In this document: in pieces, positions 17,830-40,438 of the stretch
Layout: every line of letters starts with the position of its first letter
How positions within the stretch are numbered: position 1 is the stretch's first letter
Virus record (IMG/VR): IMGVR_UViG_2563366978_000002
Location: 1-42,648 of that record
Length of the DNA: 42,648 bases
From: a virus
Lineage: Duplodnaviria; Heunggongvirae; Uroviricota; Caudoviricetes
Direction: 5' to 3' (one strand)
Position numbers and translations under genes: made by a program
Notes under the pieces: generated by a model
Database searches by the model: none
What the model saw: only the letters and a program-made list of their open reading frames with translations
What the model was told of the DNA's origin: nothing

Positions 17830-17904
17830 GGGTCAGTCGTATAAAGGTCATTACGGAAGGCTGTTAACCTTCTTATCGTGGTTCGAGCCCACGCTGTCCC
17901 GCCA
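17830..17904 (+). tRNA. tRNA-like gene, anticodon GUU (Asn) by manual fold; two stem mismatches
   Basis: Cloverleaf by eye: acceptor GGGTCAG/CTGTCCC (one T-T mismatch), D-arm with GG, anticodon stem GAAGG/CCTTC with loop CTGTTAA, T-arm CGTGG-TTCGAGC-CCACG, discriminator G, encoded CCA. Confidence 0.5.
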
Positions 17905-17909
17905 AACAT

Positions 17910-17985
17910 GCTGGTTTAGCTCCAATGGTAGAGCAGTCGCCTTGTAAGCGAATGGGTAGCGGTTCAAGTCCGTTAACCAGCACCA
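17910..17985 (+). tRNA. tRNA, anticodon UGU (Thr) by manual fold
   Basis: Acceptor GCTGGTT/AACCAGC, U8A9, D-arm GCTC-CAATGGTA-GAGC, anticodon loop CTTGTAA, T-arm AGCGG-TTCAAGT-CCGTT, discriminator A, encoded CCA. Confidence 0.7.
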
Positions 17986-31088: not shown

Positions 31089-32363
31089 ATGGCTACTTGG
31101 CAACAAGGAATCAACTCAGGCGGCTTTCTTGCTGGTATCGGTGGGCAAAACTCAAATGCGCCAAAGGCAAGTGATGTAAGTGAGGCGTTGGCCTATATTC
31201 GCCAGAACAACGAAATGGAGCGCTCAGGTCGCAATAACATCGGCCTTCAGGCGTTGCAGGGGCTTGGTAGTGTCGCTCAAACATATCAAGCCGCAAAGCA
31301 ACAGGAAGCGGATGCTGCATTCCAAAAAGAATATGCGGCAGCCATCCAGTCAGGTGATCGACAGCAGGTGCGAGATTTGATGACCAAATATCCTGGTCAA
31401 TTAGAGAAGATTCAGTCTGGCATGAAGTGGGCAGACGAAGACCAGCGTGATGAAATTGGCAATCTAGCGGCAGGCGGTCAAATTGCCTCCATGATGGGTG
31501 GTGATGCATTTAGCAAGTGGATTGGAAACAATGCAACCAGATTGTCTAATCAGGGGGTAGACCCACAACAACTCCTCAGTATGTATCAAAAAGACCCACA
31601 AGCAACATCACAACTTATCGGACAATATGGTCAGTTTGCATTAGGCCATGAAAAGTATTGGGATTTGCAGGACAAGATGGTTGGTCGCCAGCAGGAGCAG
31701 CAAAGAATTAACGAAACAATCCGTAATAATGACATGACAAATGCCAGAGGGTGGGCAAGCAACAATATTGCGCAACAAAATGTCAATCTTCGTCGAATGG
31801 AATTAGAGGACAAGAAATACGACAGACTCATCGCAAATGAAACTAATGCCTTAAAACTTGCTGAATTGCAGGACAAGAGATTGCAGAATCAGCAAGCTAT
31901 GGAGCAGGCAAAGCGAGATAAGGCTGATGCGTACAACTCTGGAATGGATAATCTTTCCAGAACGATAGAGACGGCTACAAAAGTTCTTAATAGCCCGGGT
32001 TTCACGGGATATTTCGGAACAAACCTAAACCCACTATCGAGTAGATTCATTCCAGGAACGGAGGCTGCTGATACAGAAACTCTGGTTGACACACTGAAAT
32101 CTCAGGGATTCTTATCTGGCATTCAGCAGATGAAAGGGATGGGGGCTTTAAGTAATGCCGAGGGGCAAAAGGTAATGGATGCTATTGGTAGTTTGTCCCC
32201 AAATCAGTCTGAAAAATCAGCCAGAGCAGCTATCAAAACAATCATAAAAACCACTGAGATGGCTCAGAAACGTATGCAACAGAAATACGGGAAGGACATA
32301 CAACCGTCTCAACAGCAGCTTTCTGATGATGACCTGATTAATAAATATCTCGGAGGGCAGTAA
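31089..32363 (+). CDS. Ejection (injection) protein, gp20-like
   Basis: 424-aa Gln-rich protein at the position of P22 gene 20. Confidence 0.6.
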
Positions 32364-34483
32364 TGGCCTATAGTCGTGAACAGTTGATGACGGCGTTAAG
32401 GAATGCTGATGCTGCCGGCGATACTGAGGGAGCACGTCGCATTGCTCAGATGCTGTCTTCTGATGATCAATCCACTCAAAACCAATCGCAGCCAGAAGAA
32501 CAATCTCTGGTAGGAAAAGCTACTGACTGGCTCACTGGTGGTCAAAGTGCAGGGCAAATTGCAGAACAGGCTGGTCGTGGTCTGGTAAACATACCATTTG
32601 ACGTATTGCAGGGTGGCGCAAGTCTGATTAATGCAATCAGCCAGGGGCTTGGTGGCCCCAAGGTTTTGGATGATGTCTATCGTCCAGTCGATCGACCGAC
32701 AGACCCTTACGCGCAAGCCGGTGAAACAATTGGTGGGTATCTCCTGCCAATTGGCACAGCGGCAAAAGCTGCTGGAGCGCCAGCAAAGCTCGCAGGAGAC
32801 ATCGGTTCAGCAGGAAACATGATTGCCGGTTCTCTTGCTGATGCTGCAAATCAGGAGGGTGATTTTGCACAAAATGCTGCCATTAACGGTGGTATCAATA
32901 TTGGTGCTCAAGGCGTTCTTTCAGGTGTCGGGCGCGTTATTGCCCCAAGAGTTTCACAGGCTCTTGGTGGTGCAGCACTGAATTCTGCTAATGATGTTTC
33001 GAAAATGGCAAAGTCTGGTACAGGAAGAGAGATTATTGCCAGACAGTCAGCTAACGTGTCAGACGAAATAGCAAAAGCAGCAGATACTGCTGGAATAGAT
33101 ATCAACGCATTAACTCCTGGCATGAGATCAGGTAGTCGTGGTCTTGCTCAGGCGGAGGGGATTCTGGCGTCAAAGCCCGGAATTACACAGGATGCACACA
33201 CCAAAGCATTCAGTGAAATAGAGTCGAAATTTAACTCAGCATTGGATGAGTTTGGGGCTGAAGCAGGAACTGCATCAGAAAAAAGTGCAGCCATAAAACA
33301 GAGGGTTTTGGCAAGCATTGATAAAATGAAAAATTCAGAAAAGGCCGCATGGGATAGCGTCCGCTCCACGATGCCTGACGCAAAGGCCAGAATGTCAAAC
33401 CTGAACGCTACAATTCAGGGTGATATTTTGGCTGGCATGCCGCTAACTCCTGAGATGAAACAATTCGCATCTGCTTATGCTAAAACTGGTAAAAAAGGAA
33501 TCACGTTTGATGCCATGAAGGCATGGCGAAGTAAACTTGCTGACGCAGAGCAGAAGTATATAAGGTCTGGTGAGGCAAATACGGCAAGGCGCATGGCTGA
33601 GCTTCGTGATGCAGCAACGGAAGATATGCGCATAATGGCTCAAAATGGCGGTTTTCTTGATGACTGGCAAAAAGCTAATGACCTGTCAAAGGCAAGATTT
33701 ACAGCACAAGAACAGGCTGAAGCAGCGTTTGGCAGAGACCTTGCAACTGATCAGTTGGTAAATAATGGCTCTAAGGCGTTACAGGGCTCAGCAAAAAGTG
33801 GAACAGGTCAGTTCCATAAAATAATAAGCGCCCTACCTGAGTCGGAACGCGCGCCAGCAATTGCATCAATATTACAAGATGCAATGTCGCAAGGGGTACG
33901 CGGAGGTAAGTCCGAAGAGGCTGGAATTAAGCATATCGCGACTATTCTTACCCCACAAAACGTGAAGGCAATTAGTCGATATTCTCCAGAACTTGGCAGG
34001 ATTACAAGTTCATACGGAGAACTTGCAAGAGCAGCAACAAAGCCACTTCGATATGTTGAACAGACAGGGCGATCTATGCCAGCCATTAGCACTCTTGAGA
34101 ATGGCCTTCATCCAGTTTTAGAGAGCGCATTGTCTGGCGCTTTTAGAACTACTGGCACTATCGCAGGGTTCTCTGGAGGAGGCGTTATTGGAGCAATAGC
34201 GGGTGGCGCTGCAGGTGGAGCAATTGATGCAATGGCAAAAGGAGCGATAGCGAAATTATCCGCAACTAGAAGCGGTCGTTACGCTATTGAAAAGGCTGTT
34301 CAAGAGGCAACAAAGGCAGTTAAGGTTGGGGCAAGTGATGGTGCATTAGCGGCGGCGGAACGCAGATTTATGGCAAATAAGGCCGCCGTAAAAGCAATAC
34401 GCGAGGCACTAGGAAACGAAGAGTTCCAGCGTTTAGCAAGGGCTGGAATTGTGGCATCGCTAAGCGGAATGGCACAGGAGTAA
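32363..34483 (+). CDS. Ejection (injection) / DNA transfer protein, gp16-like
   Basis: 706-aa Ala/Gly-rich protein at the position of P22 gene 16, last gene of the rightward structural operon before the immI region. Confidence 0.6.
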
Positions 34484-34813
34484 TTAGTCATCCATGGATG
34501 GATTGAGCTTATCTCGTGTTGATGTGGCAATTTTCCCAACATTTTTCAACCAAGATTTTAAGAAGGATATGTCGTCCTTAATATCATGAATATCCTCATT
34601 CTTTATACGATCAACCTTATCCTCTAGGCTCTCTATAGAACGCTCAATGCTAGACAGAGAGATTTTTAAGTCTCCTTGATCACGTTCCAGTGAGGATTTG
34701 AGAGCACAATATTCGTTTTCTAGAATTCCTATTTTTTTTGTTAGAGAGTGCATTCGATACTCATACACCAAACCAGAAACGACTAATGCAGCCAACAGAA
34801 ACCATTCAAGCAC
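34484..34813 (-). CDS. Small membrane-anchored coiled-coil protein (moron; candidate exclusion/effector component)
   Basis: 109-aa ORF, GTG start preceded by AAGGGGG; N-terminal hydrophobic helix LEWFLLAALVVSGLVYEY then heptad-like region; AT-rich; 20 nt downstream of the YafO-like gene. Confidence 0.5.
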   Translation of the reverse strand: MLEWFLLAALVVSGLVYEYRMHSLTKKIGILENEYCALKSSLERDQGDLKISLSSIERSIESLEDKVDRIKNEDIHDIKDDISFLKSWLKNVGKIATSTRDKLNPSMDD

Positions 34814-34835
34814 ACTAACCCCCTTAGTTGATATT

Positions 34836-35255
34836 TTATTTGTATGAAATCAACGAGTTAAGCTCCCTCTCATTTAGAGATTGGAATCTTTTTTCAGTTA
34901 TATCAATGATGGCTGGCAATAGTTTTTTTACCTTCTCATGACCATCAGGTTTAATGATAGCAATGATCTGGATATGAATTGGATATGTGTTGTGTACCGC
35001 AAATATCAAAAAGTTATCGCTAACTCTACGATGTATTGGCGTTGTTTTTAACCAAGGATCATCTACTCCAGGGATCCTGATGTGCGACTTGTAAATTCCC
35101 GATAAGACGGCGTGATGGTTTCTCTCAAACCCACCAATCTTACCAAGATAAGCTGAAACGGTGCCTCTGTTTTTGTAGTTTGCAAGAGCCTTCGCAAAGT
35201 ATTGTTCTAATGGTCCAGCCGCTGCATCTACAACAATGCTTATGCGGTTTTCCAT
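34836..35255 (-). CDS. YafO-like putative toxin (ribosome-dependent mRNA interferase family) - tentative
   Basis: 139-aa basic protein; ...IHIQIIAIIKPDGHEK... resembles the ...LLIAILKPEPH... region I recall from E. coli YafO; start ATG lies inside the last codons of the upstream gene (translational coupling). Confidence 0.45.
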   Translation of the reverse strand: MENRISIVVDAAAGPLEQYFAKALANYKNRGTVSAYLGKIGGFERNHHAVLSGIYKSHIRIPGVDDPWLKTTPIHRRVSDNFLIFAVHNTYPIHIQIIAIIKPDGHEKVKKLLPAIIDITEKRFQSLNERELNSLISYK

Positions 35256-35839
35256 TTTGGTGCTTCCATGCCAAATCTTTTATGTGAATCTTCAACTGAT
35301 TTCTTGAATGAAGCCAACTCTTCTTCAGTGAACTCTTCAGGTTCAGCATATGATAGTGGTATGTGCTGCATTGCTAGCGTCACAAGCCCCATAGTTAGCC
35401 TTTTGTATTCTATAAAAGTATTTATTGAGTGGTTTTTCATTGTTGTAAGAGTTGACATATGGGGCTTCCACGCATCGCTGTTCTCAGCGATGAAGAAGGT
35501 ATACAACAGTTTCGCGATACCATAATCAAGCTTAGATATTTGATCGTTCAACATATCTACATCGTCATGTTGAATATCAAGTGAGGAAATATCTTCTTCC
35601 GTACCATTACTTAATATGTCAATGAATGTAATGTACTTTTTGCAAACTTCCTCTACAGGTGACATAACGCAGTAGATCTTGCTAAGAGCTTCAGAAGCCT
35701 GTTTTTTAGACAAAGAGCCGCTATGACTGCGATCAAAGTCTGAAATTGAACGCTCGATAGATGTTGATATGTCAGAAAAAACGTTTTCAATTTTTCCTGG
35801 CTCTTGATTCAGGATGGCCATAACGCCTATCTCAATCAC
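35240..35839 (-). CDS. Hypothetical acidic protein, upstream partner of the YafO-like gene (candidate antitoxin/immunity or sensor)
   Basis: 199-aa ORF (alternative ATG at 35821); no TM segments; 16-nt overlap with the downstream gene; 43 nt downstream of the mnt stop on the same strand. Confidence 0.5.
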   Translation of the reverse strand: MIEIGVMAILNQEPGKIENVFSDISTSIERSISDFDRSHSGSLSKKQASEALSKIYCVMSPVEEVCKKYITFIDILSNGTEEDISSLDIQHDDVDMLNDQISKLDYGIAKLLYTFFIAENSDAWKPHMSTLTTMKNHSINTFIEYKRLTMGLVTLAMQHIPLSYAEPEEFTEEELASFKKSVEDSHKRFGMEAPKWKTA

Positions 35840-35881
35840 AATGTATACCTTGTTATTTTATATCAACGAACAAACATTGAC

Positions 35882-36130
35882 CTATCTGGTCTCGTACATT
35901 TTTTTCAGGGTTTCAAACACCATCTTCTTAACAATTTCTGCTTGCTGATCAGCCAAGCGTTCAGCTTCGTCTCGATAGCCTGCAATCGGTGATGGCTTTG
36001 AGAGAGCATCCTGAACGATTTGTAATAACTCAGAGTTCATTGACCTTCCGTTAGCCTCTGCTCTTAATTTCAATTTTTCTCTTACTTCCAAAGGCATACG
36101 GAAGTTAAAGTGCGGATCGTCTCTAGCCAT
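35882..36130 (-). CDS. mnt: Mnt repressor (ribbon-helix-helix, P22 immI)
   Basis: 82-aa ORF MARDDPHFNFRMPLEVREKLKLRAEANGRSMNSELLQIVQDALSKPSP... matches P22 Mnt as recalled. Confidence 0.9.
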   Translation of the reverse strand: MARDDPHFNFRMPLEVREKLKLRAEANGRSMNSELLQIVQDALSKPSPIAGYRDEAERLADQQAEIVKKMVFETLKKMYETR

Positions 36131-36152
36131 GCCATCACCCCAAGTTAGTGTA

Positions 36153-36204
36153 TTGACATGATAGAAGCACTCTACTATATTCTCAATAGGTCCACGGTGG
36201 ACCT
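36153..36204. promoter_or_regulatory. immI control region: pant -35/-10, Arc operator and Mnt operator
   Basis: TTGACA (36153..36158); ATGATAGAAGCACTCTACTAT (36158..36178) matches the P22 arc operator as recalled; palindrome AGGTCCACGGTGGACCT (36188..36204) matches the P22 mnt operator. Confidence 0.8.
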
Positions 36205-36220: not shown

Positions 36221-36379
36221 ATGAAAGGAATGAGCAAAATGCCGCAGTTCAATTTGCGGTGGCCTAAAGAAGTATTGGATTTGGTGCGTAAGGTGGCGGA
36301 AGAGAACGGGCGATCTGTTAACTCTGAGATTTACAAGCGAGTGATGGACAGCCTGAAGAGAGAGGGGATTACGGTATGA
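36221..36379 (+). CDS. arc: Arc repressor (ribbon-helix-helix, P22 immI)
   Basis: 52-aa ORF MKGMSKMPQFNLRWPKEVLDLVRKVAEENGRSVNSEIYKRVMDSLKREGITV, near-identical to P22 Arc as recalled. Confidence 0.9.
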   Translation: MKGMSKMPQFNLRWPKEVLDLVRKVAEENGRSVNSEIYKRVMDSLKREGITV

Positions 36380-36645
36380 AGGTGTCATTGCTTGATCGTT
36401 CTTTACAATTTTTGTCTGGCGCAATCATTGTAGTTTGCTTGCTCGTGATTTTTACATCGTTAATAAATATGTATCAATCAGGGGAACGATTGACAAAGAC
36501 GATAGAGGAAAAAAAATCAGTCTCAAATTACGAAGTATCACATGCACATAACGATTTAGTAGAAAGCCTTGACCGTATTAACAAGAGGCTTGACGAGACA
36601 AATATGCTACTTAAGCAAATTCAAAATGAAGTGGAAAAACGTTGA
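36376..36645 (+). CDS. Small membrane-anchored coiled-coil protein inserted between arc and ant
   Basis: 89-aa ORF with ATGA overlap with the arc stop; N-terminal hydrophobic helix (FLSGAIIVVCLLVIFTSLI) and coiled-coil-like C-terminus; AT-rich. Confidence 0.5.
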   Translation: MKVSLLDRSLQFLSGAIIVVCLLVIFTSLINMYQSGERLTKTIEEKKSVSNYEVSHAHNDLVESLDRINKRLDETNMLLKQIQNEVEKR

Positions 36646-36675
36646 AGCCCCAACTGCGGGAACAGTCAGGGCTTC
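36635..36675 (-). terminator. Minus-strand intrinsic terminator, candidate 3' end of a sar-like antisense RNA
   Basis: Minus-strand hairpin GAAGCCC...GGGCTTC followed by U5 (plus-strand AAAAA at 36635..36639); located just upstream of the ant start on the opposite strand. Confidence 0.4.
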
Positions 36676-36708
36676 GGTATCGTAAAACCACGCATAGGAA
36701 TTAACGAC

Positions 36709-37632
36709 ATGAAAAGTATAGCAACAGCAGTATCTACTATCAATGTACCATTCCACGGCGCAGAGCTTTATGTTGTCAATCACAACGGTGAGCCGTACAC
36801 CCCAATGAAACCTATCGTTGAGGGAATGGGTATGGATTGGGCTTCACAGTTTACAAAGTTAAAACAAAGATTTGCTAAAGGTATTGTGGAAATCGCAATA
36901 CCTTCAGTTGGCGGTGTGCAGACCATGATTTGCCTTGCTTTACGTAAACTGAATGGCTGGTTGCAAACCATCAGCCCTAACAAAGTCCGCCCTGAAATCC
37001 GCGACAAGGTAATCCAGTATCAGGAAGAGTGTGACGATGTGCTATACGAGTACTGGACTAAAGGCCATGTAGTTAACCCACGCAAAGCTAAAAAGGCGTT
37101 GCCGGGTAAAATCACCACTGAACAGCAGGAAGCCATTAAACAACTCGTCATGAGTCGCGGTCAGTCTCTGCCAAAGGAAAAACAGGCTAAGGCGATGATC
37201 ACCATGTGGTCGTCACTGAAATCTCATTTTGGGTGTTCATACAAAGAAATCAGTGAGGAGCAGTTTACCGAAGCTCTGTCACTTGCAGCTCGCGTTCCGC
37301 TTGAAGGCGAGTTAATCGGCAAACAAGAGAAGAAAGCAAACGAGCTTTCTGCAAAAGAAGCAAACAGCCTTGTATGGTTATGGGATTATGCCAACCGCTC
37401 ACAGGCATTATTCCGCGAACTGTATCCGGCGCTAAAACAAATTCAATCGAACTATTCCGGCAGATGCTACGACTACGGTCATGAGTTCTCGTATGTTATC
37501 GGAATGGCGAGAGACGTTTTAATCAATCACACACGAGATGTTGATATCAATGAGCCAGACGGACCAACGAATCTTTCCGCATGGATGAGACTTAAGAATA
37601 AAGAATTACCTCCTTCAGTTCATAACTACTGA
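36709..37632 (+). CDS. ant: Antirepressor Ant
   Basis: 307-aa ORF downstream of arc in the immI operon, size close to P22 Ant (~300 aa); N-terminal domain resembles AntA-type antirepressor domains; followed by a strong terminator. Confidence 0.6.
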
Positions 37633-37732: not shown

Positions 37733-40438
37733 ATGACAGACATTACAGCCAATGTTGTAGTGAGTATGCCTTCGCAACTCTTCACTATGGCGCGTTCTTT
37801 TAAAGCCGTAGCCAACGGCAAAATTTATATCGGAAAAATTGACACTGACCCGGTAAATCCTGAAAACCAGATTCAGGTTTATGTGGAAAACGAAGACGGT
37901 TCTCAAGTTCCTGTTTCTCAACCAATCATCATTAACGCTGCTGGTTACCCGGTATATAACGGACAGATTGCCAAATTCGTTACCGTGCAAGGCCATTCTA
38001 TGGCTGTTTACGATGCTTATGGCACTCAGCAGTTTTATTTTCCAAATGTATTAAAATACGATCCAGATCAGTTTGGCCCAGACTTCAAAGAGCAGTTATC
38101 TCAATCAGGAGCATACATTAATGATGATTCAAAAGGTGATGCATTAATTGGGGTAAGGCAGCCATTTACCGGGGCTGTAACTATAACTCAGCATGAAAAC
38201 AATGCTCTTTTCTTAAATGTAAAACAATTTGGAGCAATTGGGGATGGGAAATATCATCCATTATCTGAGTGGTTTTCTTCAATTTCTGAAGCAAAATCCT
38301 TATATCCTTTTGTTGACTCATTATCTCAGTCAATAGACTGGGCCGCGTGGCAAGCTGCCCTTAACACAGGAAAGGTTATTTATGGTACTGATAATGCGTA
38401 TGTAATAACGGATACGTTAACACCTGTTTCTGGTGGTGGGATAATTTGTCTTGGTGTGGGCAAATGGGTCTCAGGATATACTGCAACATTTGCTCCTGAT
38501 ATTACCACAGGGACCACATTCCTGATGTACGGGGTAGGAAATAAAAAATATACTGTAGATTGTGTTTCTAATATGGATGTTAGTGGTGGTGTGGTTTCTA
38601 ATCCATCTTCCGAAGACCCGTATACAACAACGGCACCTGCGTCATCATATGATTTATTGGATTTTACTAACGGTGATGCTAATGGGACTACAAGAGCCAC
38701 GCTTAAACCATTCTCTGCCGCAATATTGATGCCTGAGACAGGATGTGTTCGCCTTGAGAACTTTCGTGTTGTTCCATATTTCAATGGGCTGGATGGTTAT
38801 AAAGACATTGCAAATACCGGTCTTGGCGATGAGTGGGATGTAGGTATTTGGTCACGTGCGTCTTTTGGCAATGAATACCGCAATTTGCAGGTGGTTGGAT
38901 ACTGGCGCAAGACGGCACTTTTAAAAACGAACATTCCTGTATCTGGCACGCTGGCCGCTCAGGGCGAGGATGAAAACTATTATCACTGTAGATTCCAGGG
39001 ATTCAAGGGTATTTCGATCCGCGCCCATGATGTATTCCGAATTACAGCGGTAACGTCCAGCACTATCGAAATCCCATGGTCAGCAAGCCACACCTTCGAA
39101 ACGTCCGGGGTTTTAAGATCTGGAGGCAGGAATTTCACTTATTCAGGATTATCCGTATCCGGTGATAAGTTAGTATTTACTGGAGTGTCTAACGCTTCTG
39201 AGGCAACAGTAGGTTCTACTATACGGCGAAATGACATAGATAACTTTGGTATGGCGGGAACGCAATTTTTCGATTGCTACATTACCAGCCTGTATCACCA
39301 CACACATCTGCTTGCCACATCGCAATACCTGTCTCAACCATTCAGCCGACCATCAGAGTGTATGGAGGTTTCAGGGGAACCAGTTCGCGGTGTACAGGTA
39401 CATGCAGGAACCATTCAGGGATGGGATGATGTTCTTATTCATCTACATGACTGTGGAAATATGAACTTTTACAGTACATATTTCGAAAGCCAGCAAGCAT
39501 ATGTAACTATAAATGGTGGTAATGCTATTGGTTATGGAGCACGTATGATAGCTTCCCGGCAATCAACAAGCTCATTACCATATGCAGCAGGGAATACTCG
39601 AGTGCTTAGAATGGTCGGGTGCTCTGAAGGCAATGGCGTTGACTGGGGTCCTGTATTTAACAACTATACAGGAGGAAGATATAATTCTGGAGACGGTGTA
39701 TTTAACCCCCGCGATGCATTTATAGACCATAAATCTCTTCCTGAGCAGTCAGGAGGTGAGTCAAGACTCGTATCACAAAAAGGAAATGCCAGAGTAGTAT
39801 GTGGTGTTGGTAAAACTGTACTGCTTGGACCAACGTCAGGAGATTGTAATTTACAGAGTAATACTGGAAGTTTAAATATTAGAAGTGGGATAAGAGTAAG
39901 AATCGGTCACGCTGATGGAACAGACTGGTGGTTGGCAGATGCTAATAAAATAGCTCCTGTTGATGATAATGTTAAAGCTATTGGACAGCCATCAAACAGA
40001 TGCTCTGTTATTTATGCAGGAACCGGGTCAATCAATACATCAGATGAAACTCTTAAAACAAGATATGATATTCTTAATGCAGAGCGTGATGCCGCTATTG
40101 AAATAAAGTCAGTCATCTATAAATTTAAATTTAATGACTCAATTAATCACAAAGGAATTGAGTCGTCTAGGTATCATTTTGGCGTTGGCGCTCAAACCGT
40201 AGGGGATATTCTTAGAAAGCATGGTTTAAACCCTGAGCAATATGCTTTTTGGTGTTACGATGAATGGCCTGACGTATGGGATGAAGAGGTGATAACTGAA
40301 GAGAGCACAGATCCTGATACAGGTGAGAAAATTTATTCTCAATATAAAACAGGAGATATGATTCTTGTAAAAAAAGCAGGAGGACGCTACGGAATTCGTT
40401 ATGACGAATTGGCTATGTTTATATTAATGGCAATGTAG
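37733..40438 (+). CDS. Tailspike: P22 gp9-like N-terminal head-binding domain, distinct central receptor-binding domain, C-terminal autoproteolytic intramolecular-chaperone-like domain
   Basis: 901-aa ORF; first ~110 aa ([56 protein letters not shown]...VLKYDPDQ) match the P22 tailspike head-binding domain as recalled; last ~132 aa begin with SDETLK, resembling the Ser-Lys cleavage motif of chaperone domains. Confidence 0.85.

Follow-up and report, generated by a model that had tools for sequence, protein, structure and literature searches.

The two small genes that we call A and T probably constitute an autonomous, horizontally mobile toxin–antitoxin (TA) module of type II, in which a divergent YafO toxin is paired with a new antitoxin and both are expressed from Pmnt in the lysogen. 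The strongest evidence for the autonomy of A/T as a unit is genomic context: in every context examined, an A-family member has a small partner gene close behind it. The window, by which we mean the whole stretch of 42,648 nucleotides analyzed here, is a complete CUS-3-type prophage of the P22-like phages (Lederbergvirus). Several chromosomes of avian-pathogenic Escherichia coli contain prophages with 100% identity to the segment from 34300 to 36200, in which the pair lies. This segment shows 95.8% identity at 87% coverage with phage CUS-3 and with the prophages of UTI89, IHE3034, NU14 and APEC O18.

The immI region surrounding A/T looks intact. The repressor gene mnt (35882–36130, minus strand; Pfam Arc and Repressor_Mnt) lies directly upstream of A on the same strand. 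A consensus scan located a putative Pmnt-like promoter (TTGAGA-17-TATCAT; 36158–36186, minus strand), overlapped by a divergent, likewise putative Pant-like promoter (36153–36181, plus strand), a layout that agrees with immI of P22 (PMC2629481). The region further contains arc (36221–36379, plus strand), a full-length sar antisense RNA (36640–36707, minus strand; 80.7 bits in Rfam) and ant (36709–37632, plus strand). In P22, the slot between gene 16 and mnt holds sieA (PMC10883804, PMC2629481), which is present in 22 of 66 P22-like phages (PMC10883804). The 'ant moron' region is highly variable: ten types of it were distinguished among sixteen genomes (PMC2629481).

A preliminary description of the locus had placed three minus-strand genes directly downstream of mnt in the sieA slot of P22, and this layout holds: all three ORFs are present between 16 and mnt, running toward the convergent gene for the gp16 homologue, whose end is at 34483. 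Gene A (35240–35839, minus strand; phrog_18235) starts with GTG and encodes an acidic, predicted helical candidate antitoxin of 199 amino acids. Gene T (34836–35255, minus strand; Pfam PF13957) encodes a basic, putative toxin of the YafO family with 139 amino acids. The stop of A and the start of T overlap by 16 nt (35240–35255), as had been described; the arrangement suggests translational coupling and is kept in the Pectobacterium, Salmonella and Xenorhabdus copies. The upstream partner coupled to T is indeed unusually large at 199 residues, and the acidic/basic pairing that had been pointed out is borne out by a pI of 4.9 and a net charge of −12 for A, against 9.6 and +6 for T. The third ORF, an hkcB homologue (34484–34813, minus strand; 109 amino acids, GTG start), belongs to phrog_5962 (E 3.6e-61). 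It has a strong ribosome-binding site, AAGGGGG, and its stop codon directly abuts that of the convergent gp16 homologue. The gap separating it from T measures 22 nt and not 20 nt as first given, and the gap between mnt and A is 42 nt. All three genes are AT-rich, as had been noticed by eye of their composition, with a GC content of 37.6–39.3% versus 47.4% for the whole window.

A consensus scan and folding revealed no sigma-70-like promoter or intrinsic terminator at the mnt/A or T/hkcB junctions or after hkcB. Terminator-like folds were likewise absent from the mnt/A, T/hkcB and hkcB/gp16 junctions, whose RNAs fold no better than shuffled sequences. Given that neither a terminator nor a promoter separates mnt from A, it is plausible that A and T are co-transcribed with mnt from Pmnt in the lysogen. 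Transcription from Pmnt would supply A and T jointly for as long as the prophage stays repressed. No Rfam RNA was found within the three-gene block, which thus shows no sign of an RNA antitoxin.

The membership of T in the YafO family is already known at the annotation level: its RefSeq name is 'type II toxin-antitoxin system YafO family toxin'. A profile-HMM search confirms the YafO likeness of the 139-residue protein that had been noted earlier, with T scoring 45.1 bits (E 1.1e-11) against Pfam YafO_toxin (PF13957), above the gathering cut-off of 25, over profile positions 2–98 of 101. In an alignment of 36 YafO-family proteins, including classic YafO, the residues equivalent to H58, L83, P103 and H106 are invariant and are all retained in T, which therefore keeps the conserved core of the family. 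Arg77, Ser79 and Asp80 are near-invariant in the same alignment and are also retained. K-12 YafO aligns with T at the two-His and KP..H motifs. E. coli YafO was experimentally shown to be a translation-dependent mRNA interferase that is neutralized by the upstream YafN, and it has been placed in the RelE superfamily (PMC2814082). By family relationship, T would be a ribosome-dependent mRNA endonuclease of the RelE superfamily that uses His58 and His106.

An orthology of T to K-12 YafO was considered and ruled out: the two proteins are 19–21% identical (19% by BLASTP), and T scores 14.2 bits against the NCBIfam equivalog model for YafO (NF007377), far below the cut-off of 153. This distance of T from K-12 YafO, about 20% identity together with the equivalog score, counts against the TA reading. 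PDB sequence and profile searches with T returned noise or designed helical proteins only, and neither T nor A contains a hydrophobic segment. The preliminary description could not place the genes in a described defence family, in agreement with our searches of PADLOC-DB v2: A and hkcB gave only chance-level matches of 13–16 bits (PtuB, DpdH and PbeC), and T gave none.

Protein A appears to represent a previously undescribed family that is the cognate partner of T. Profile and sequence searches with A found no relative in Pfam, NCBIfam, PADLOC or the PDB. No Pfam domain was detected in A or in 16 family members, neither DUF4065 nor any other antitoxin domain. HTH, RHH and AbrB domains were not detected in A, PDB searches yielded only designed helical proteins or noise, and no alignment to YafN was obtained at E ≤ 100. 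Searching the literature for accession numbers and PHROG identifiers gave no result. The A family is tiny, with 18 matches when 1.84 billion representative proteins were searched exhaustively by profile, and its full-length members all have about 190–218 residues. Residues 1–6 of A are conserved in homologues that have a residue other than Met at position 7, which supports the GTG start. Trp124, Trp196 and an A-W-x-P-H motif are conserved across the whole family.

The AlphaFold2 model of A (pLDDT 79.6, pTM 0.66) features a four-helix bundle formed by residues 14–38, 45–78, 91–119 and 125–157. The bundle is followed by a low-confidence acidic linker (158–171), a helix (172–188) and the C-terminal tail. 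The all-helical model gave generic structure matches only. Our proposal is that A may act as an antitoxin with a folded four-helix-bundle body that lacks a recognizable DNA-binding domain. A DNA-binding antitoxin with operator autoregulation is common among type II systems but not universal. Upstream of free-standing A/T copies, no operator-like palindrome or inverted repeat was found to be conserved or shared. The large size of A, its well-folded predicted structure and its lack of the DNA-binding domain that type II antitoxins typically have also count against the TA reading.

The two-gene arrangement recurs in at least 12 distinct contexts, and only two partner families of A were seen, the YafO-type protein and an unrelated family of about 125 residues. 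The junctions range from overlaps of 4–17 nt to gaps of at most 8 nt, with 26 nt at one locus (L024) beside a truncated toxin. With the same 16-nt overlap as in the window, A and T are found as a solitary pair in Pectobacterium, flanked by an ABC-transporter operon and gcvP, and in further Pectobacterium species. The overlap is also identical at two different core-genome sites in Xenorhabdus (A 43% and T 53–58% identical) and in a P22-like prophage of Salmonella, where the pair follows mnt and hkcB is missing. In two immunity regions of lambdoid type, distant A homologues followed by a YafO_toxin gene lie directly behind cI-like repressors (HTH+S24). Other such pairs are located in a chromosomal island, next to a transposase on a metagenome contig, and in a siphovirus, with the tape-measure gene on one side and tail genes on the other. 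At the chromosomal-island locus, a truncated toxin of 78 residues stands beside an intact A homologue. Two co-oriented, tightly coupled small genes are thus kept as a unit across unrelated contexts, the pattern by which type II TA modules are recognized. In this prophage, the module would be a moron inserted after mnt.

A locus search with an alignment of close A relatives recovered only three Pectobacterium and six viral loci, and among 50,697 phage records A/T occurred only in CUS-3 and in one distant siphovirus. In E. coli, 44 of 5426 complete genomes carry A/T, each as a single, chromosomal, full-length copy with at least 99% identity. The carriers are CUS-3-like prophages of K1/ST95-type ExPEC and APEC, including UTI89, IHE3034, NU14 and APEC O18. 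These data bear on whether the pair might be an inactive relic, with the activity of T lost and both ORFs hitch-hiking. Fragments of both genes do occur in some genomes (P0015, P0022), and T is very divergent from K-12 YafO. However, all 44 E. coli copies are full-length, T retains the family-invariant residues, and purifying selection acts on both genes, with dN values of 0.15–0.53 in comparisons between genera, far below a dS that exceeds 1.6 or is too saturated to estimate. We consider decay of the pair barely credible.

The same contexts speak to a role in the lytic programme, according to which T would be a phage RNase for host shut-off or mRNA turnover and A its regulator or chaperone. 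In five independent prophage contexts, the gene directly in front of the pair encodes a repressor, mnt in three of them and a cI-like one in two, and the pair is on the side of the repressor (lysogenic) transcript and outside the lytic operons. Purifying selection also acts on the same pair at non-phage chromosomal sites. A lytic function is therefore highly improbable.

Members of another A-family branch are followed, in four of four cases checked, by an unrelated protein of about 125–130 residues, and one of these loci lies directly after mnt in a different phage. This second partner corresponds to phrog_5954 and contains the invariant motifs LPGRNKPSTGVS, HYHxG, GDWTS and HPP. A resemblance by eye had raised the possibility of a remote YafO. 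We rejected it, given an hhalign probability of 0.15% and no Pfam hit; the apparent matches were circular, with one such sequence inside the query alignment.

The last ~30 residues of A exist in two forms that follow the type of partner. Members with YafO partners end in '...SH(K/R)xxG(M/L)ExPxW', and those with the second partner carry 'PxWV(K/T)SG(D/E)(D/E)FVxW...'. Compared to A of the window, distant members with a YafO partner share 15.8% identity in the body and 43.6% in the tail, whereas members with the other partner share 27.7% in the body and 22.6% in the tail. Because body and tail identities run in opposite order, the tail tracks the partner and not the phylogeny of the A body. Such tracking would be expected if the tail were the toxin-specific neutralizing segment. 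In the window, the C-terminal ~30 residues of A, comprising the helix 172–188 and the G-M-E-x-P-x-W tail, would bind and neutralize T.

The preliminary description had treated A, T and hkcB as a three-gene cassette. The three could in principle form a single defence system, for example a TA pair with a membrane effector or sensor: they are co-oriented and AT-rich, the gap between T and hkcB is short, and no terminator separates the two. Yet hkcB is missing from every other A/T context examined (Pectobacterium, Salmonella, Xenorhabdus and the distant A loci), and it is present without A/T in HK620, epsilon34 and SEN22. In HK620, hkcB abuts the end of gene 16 as in the window; only remnants of immI are left there, with neither mnt nor A/T upstream of hkcB. 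Sequence identity to CUS-3 breaks sharply between T and hkcB. It is 98–100% across mnt, A and T (99% for A/T) and 51–89% over hkcB and gene 16 (in its distal two-thirds); in 100-nt windows it changes from 56% (34700–34799) to 94–100% from 34800 onward. Identity to HK620 stops at about 34829. Together, the identity windows against CUS-3 and HK620 define a mosaic (recombination) boundary at about 34810–34830 between the A/T–mnt segment and the hkcB–gp16 segment. The hkcB product of the window is 97% identical in amino acid sequence to that of HK620 and 49% to that of CUS-3. The corresponding values for gp16 are 96% and 74%. The hkcB allele thus goes together with the gp16 allele, for which plain physical linkage is an equally good explanation.

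Its independent occurrence and the breakpoint between T and hkcB set the third gene apart from A/T, and the cassette view retains very little probability. As judged from sequence, hkcB appears to be an independent gene for a predicted membrane-anchored coiled-coil protein that travels with gene 16 and is no part of the A/T module. In the aligned hkcB alleles, the N-terminus stays hydrophobic and the middle rich in heptads, and the 45 residues at the C-terminus are highly conserved. Of the transmembrane helix and coiled coil first ascribed to the protein, the former corresponds to a single hydrophobic segment near the N-terminus that is borderline (KD19 about 1.5); for the latter, only weak matches of the coiled-coil type were obtained.

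The role of the module is the least secure step of our explanation. Our analysis tentatively favours an abortive-infection-type protection of the lysogen, to which we assign somewhat less than an even chance. It is favoured on the basis of genomic position, because the module sits behind repressor genes, the classic slot for exclusion genes. The main alternatives to protection are that the genuine TA pair serves prophage addiction or stabilization, or that it is maintained purely selfishly. Like selfish TA modules, the pair stands alone in the chromosomes of Pectobacterium and Xenorhabdus, where neither phage nor defence genes adjoin it, and if it is coupled to the promoter of the repressor, the supply of antitoxin would depend on the prophage being present. 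Against this, integrated prophages are rarely lost, and the slots after mnt and cI classically hold exclusion genes such as sieA and rexAB (PMC10883804). We regard addiction or selfish persistence as rather unlikely. Nothing in the present data discriminates between defence and the addiction or selfish roles.

A broader and distinctly more speculative model can be formulated, which we hold to be improbable. The A family might be a non-DNA-binding, phage-sensing antitoxin hub with a conserved helical body, which a swappable tail arms with either a YafO RNase or an unrelated, undescribed toxin of about 125 residues (phrog_5954). The hub would have been wired repeatedly to mnt and cI operons as a rex-like abortive-infection system, with hkcB as a gp16-matched, SieA-like injection blocker.

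To relate the proposed TA module to known systems, we compared it to YafN–YafO of K-12. Both toxins fall into PF13957 and share the conserved H...H and (I/L)KP..H motifs; in both systems, a tightly coupled gene upstream of that for the basic toxin encodes an acidic partner. Through its family, T may also be related to the RelE/HigB superfamily of ribosome-dependent mRNA endonucleases. In contrast to the K-12 system, T misses the equivalog threshold for YafO, and A is a predicted helical bundle of 199 residues that is unrelated to the 97-residue, Phd/YefM-type YafN. Also, YafN–YafO belongs to the SOS dinB operon, whereas A/T resides in a prophage immI region.

Lambda rexAB lies after cI, and exclusion genes are classic behind prophage repressors. 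A/T shares the slot and the strand logic of rexAB and of P22 sieA after mnt. Unlike these genes, it shows no sequence or architectural similarity to either, and the proposed mechanism of an RNase toxin and its antitoxin differs from theirs. SieA is a multi-pass inner-membrane protein with the motif FxRYPxEAxxFNK (PMC10883804). This motif is missing from all six frames of the window, and no multi-TM protein was found, hkcB containing at most one hydrophobic segment.

Like the hyperpromiscuous modular antitoxins (Panacea/DUF4065, NetFlax; PMC10440598), the A family combines a conserved body with unrelated toxin partners and a partner-specific segment. It differs from Panacea/DUF4065 in that A does not match DUF4065, only two partner families are seen and the family is tiny. 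The NetFlax paper does not mention YafO (PMC10440598). A survey from 2011 found YafO with Phd-type or unclassified partners only, and never on phages or plasmids (PMC3141249). In the 2023 SLING survey of E. coli, YafO_toxin had 13 partner clusters with a known proportion of 0.08, none of them characterized (PMC10790755).

The toxin family and the TA logic are thus already known. What is new is the definition of the A family as a cognate partner with a predicted helical-bundle architecture and no detected DNA-binding domain, its association with two partners that are unrelated to each other and the swappable tail that matches them, and the recurrent position behind prophage repressors. If our reading is true, the type II repertoire would gain a new antitoxin family and, via the second partner, a candidate new toxin family, and YafO-type toxins would occur on temperate phages, contrary to the early survey (PMC3141249). 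A/T would be a concrete candidate for lysogen-expressed protection or prophage stabilization in prophages of K1/ST95-type ExPEC and APEC. Finally, the partner-tracking tail would represent a natural experiment on the exchange of antitoxin specificity.

The YafO-family toxin is not the only gene found next to proteins related to the 199-aa acidic candidate antitoxin. At every locus looked at, the second-branch relatives of this protein are directly followed by a gene of the phrog_5954 family, encoding ~125–130 aa (L006:2065-2457, L026:2333-2716, L029:881-1123 and L030:801-1172). The partner family features the invariant motifs LPGRNKPSTGVS, HYHxG, GDWTS and HPP, and no Pfam match was found for it. 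It may represent a novel family of toxins with no relationship to YafO. At the island locus L024, the YafO gene beside an intact 194-aa homologue of the candidate antitoxin encodes a truncated product of 78 aa (L024:1243-1479). Decay of the toxin before the antitoxin is the order expected for a toxin–antitoxin pair, here seen in a single case.

The third gene, hkcB, which encodes an N-terminally anchored coiled-coil protein, co-varies in allele with the adjoining gp16 homologue (window 32363-34813, compared with the CUS-3 and HK620 loci). Identity to HK620 is 96% for gp16 and 97% for hkcB, whereas identity to CUS-3 is 74% and 49%, respectively. This co-variation could be plain linkage; equally, it could represent a functional match, for example if hkcB were a gp16-specific exclusion factor. 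By BLASTP, the gp16 proteins of HK620 (L028:1016-3184) and CUS-3 (CP000711; L001:2025-4184) are 77% identical, which disagrees with the value of only 26% given in PMC10883804.

Two adjacent tRNA genes, tRNA-Asn(GTT) and tRNA-Thr(TGT), lie within the prophage (17830-17985, + strand). The tailspike gene (37733-40438, + strand) encodes 901 aa, and nucleotide similarity to CUS-3 ends at ~38073, ~113 codons into the gene, from which we infer that the head-binding domain is common to both phages and that the receptor-binding domain differs from the CUS-3 endosialidase. An APEC prophage with 100% cassette identity to the window carries yet another tailspike, of 981 aa.

The immI regulatory circuit looks intact at the sequence level because a full-length sar antisense RNA (36640-36707, − strand; Rfam RF00262, 80.7 bits against a gathering score of 43) is accompanied by a Psar-like promoter-like site inside the start of ant (36743-36715, − strand) and a 14-bp terminator stem (36675-36644). 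Between arc and ant lies an 89-aa ORF (36376-36645, + strand; phrog_27312, hypothetical in RefSeq). There is a 4-nt overlap with the arc stop, and the 3′ end of the ORF runs into sar. A clear TM segment (KD19 2.79) at the N-terminus of the encoded protein precedes a coiled-coil-like remainder. hkcB shares this architecture, but sequence similarity between the two is absent (15% identity).
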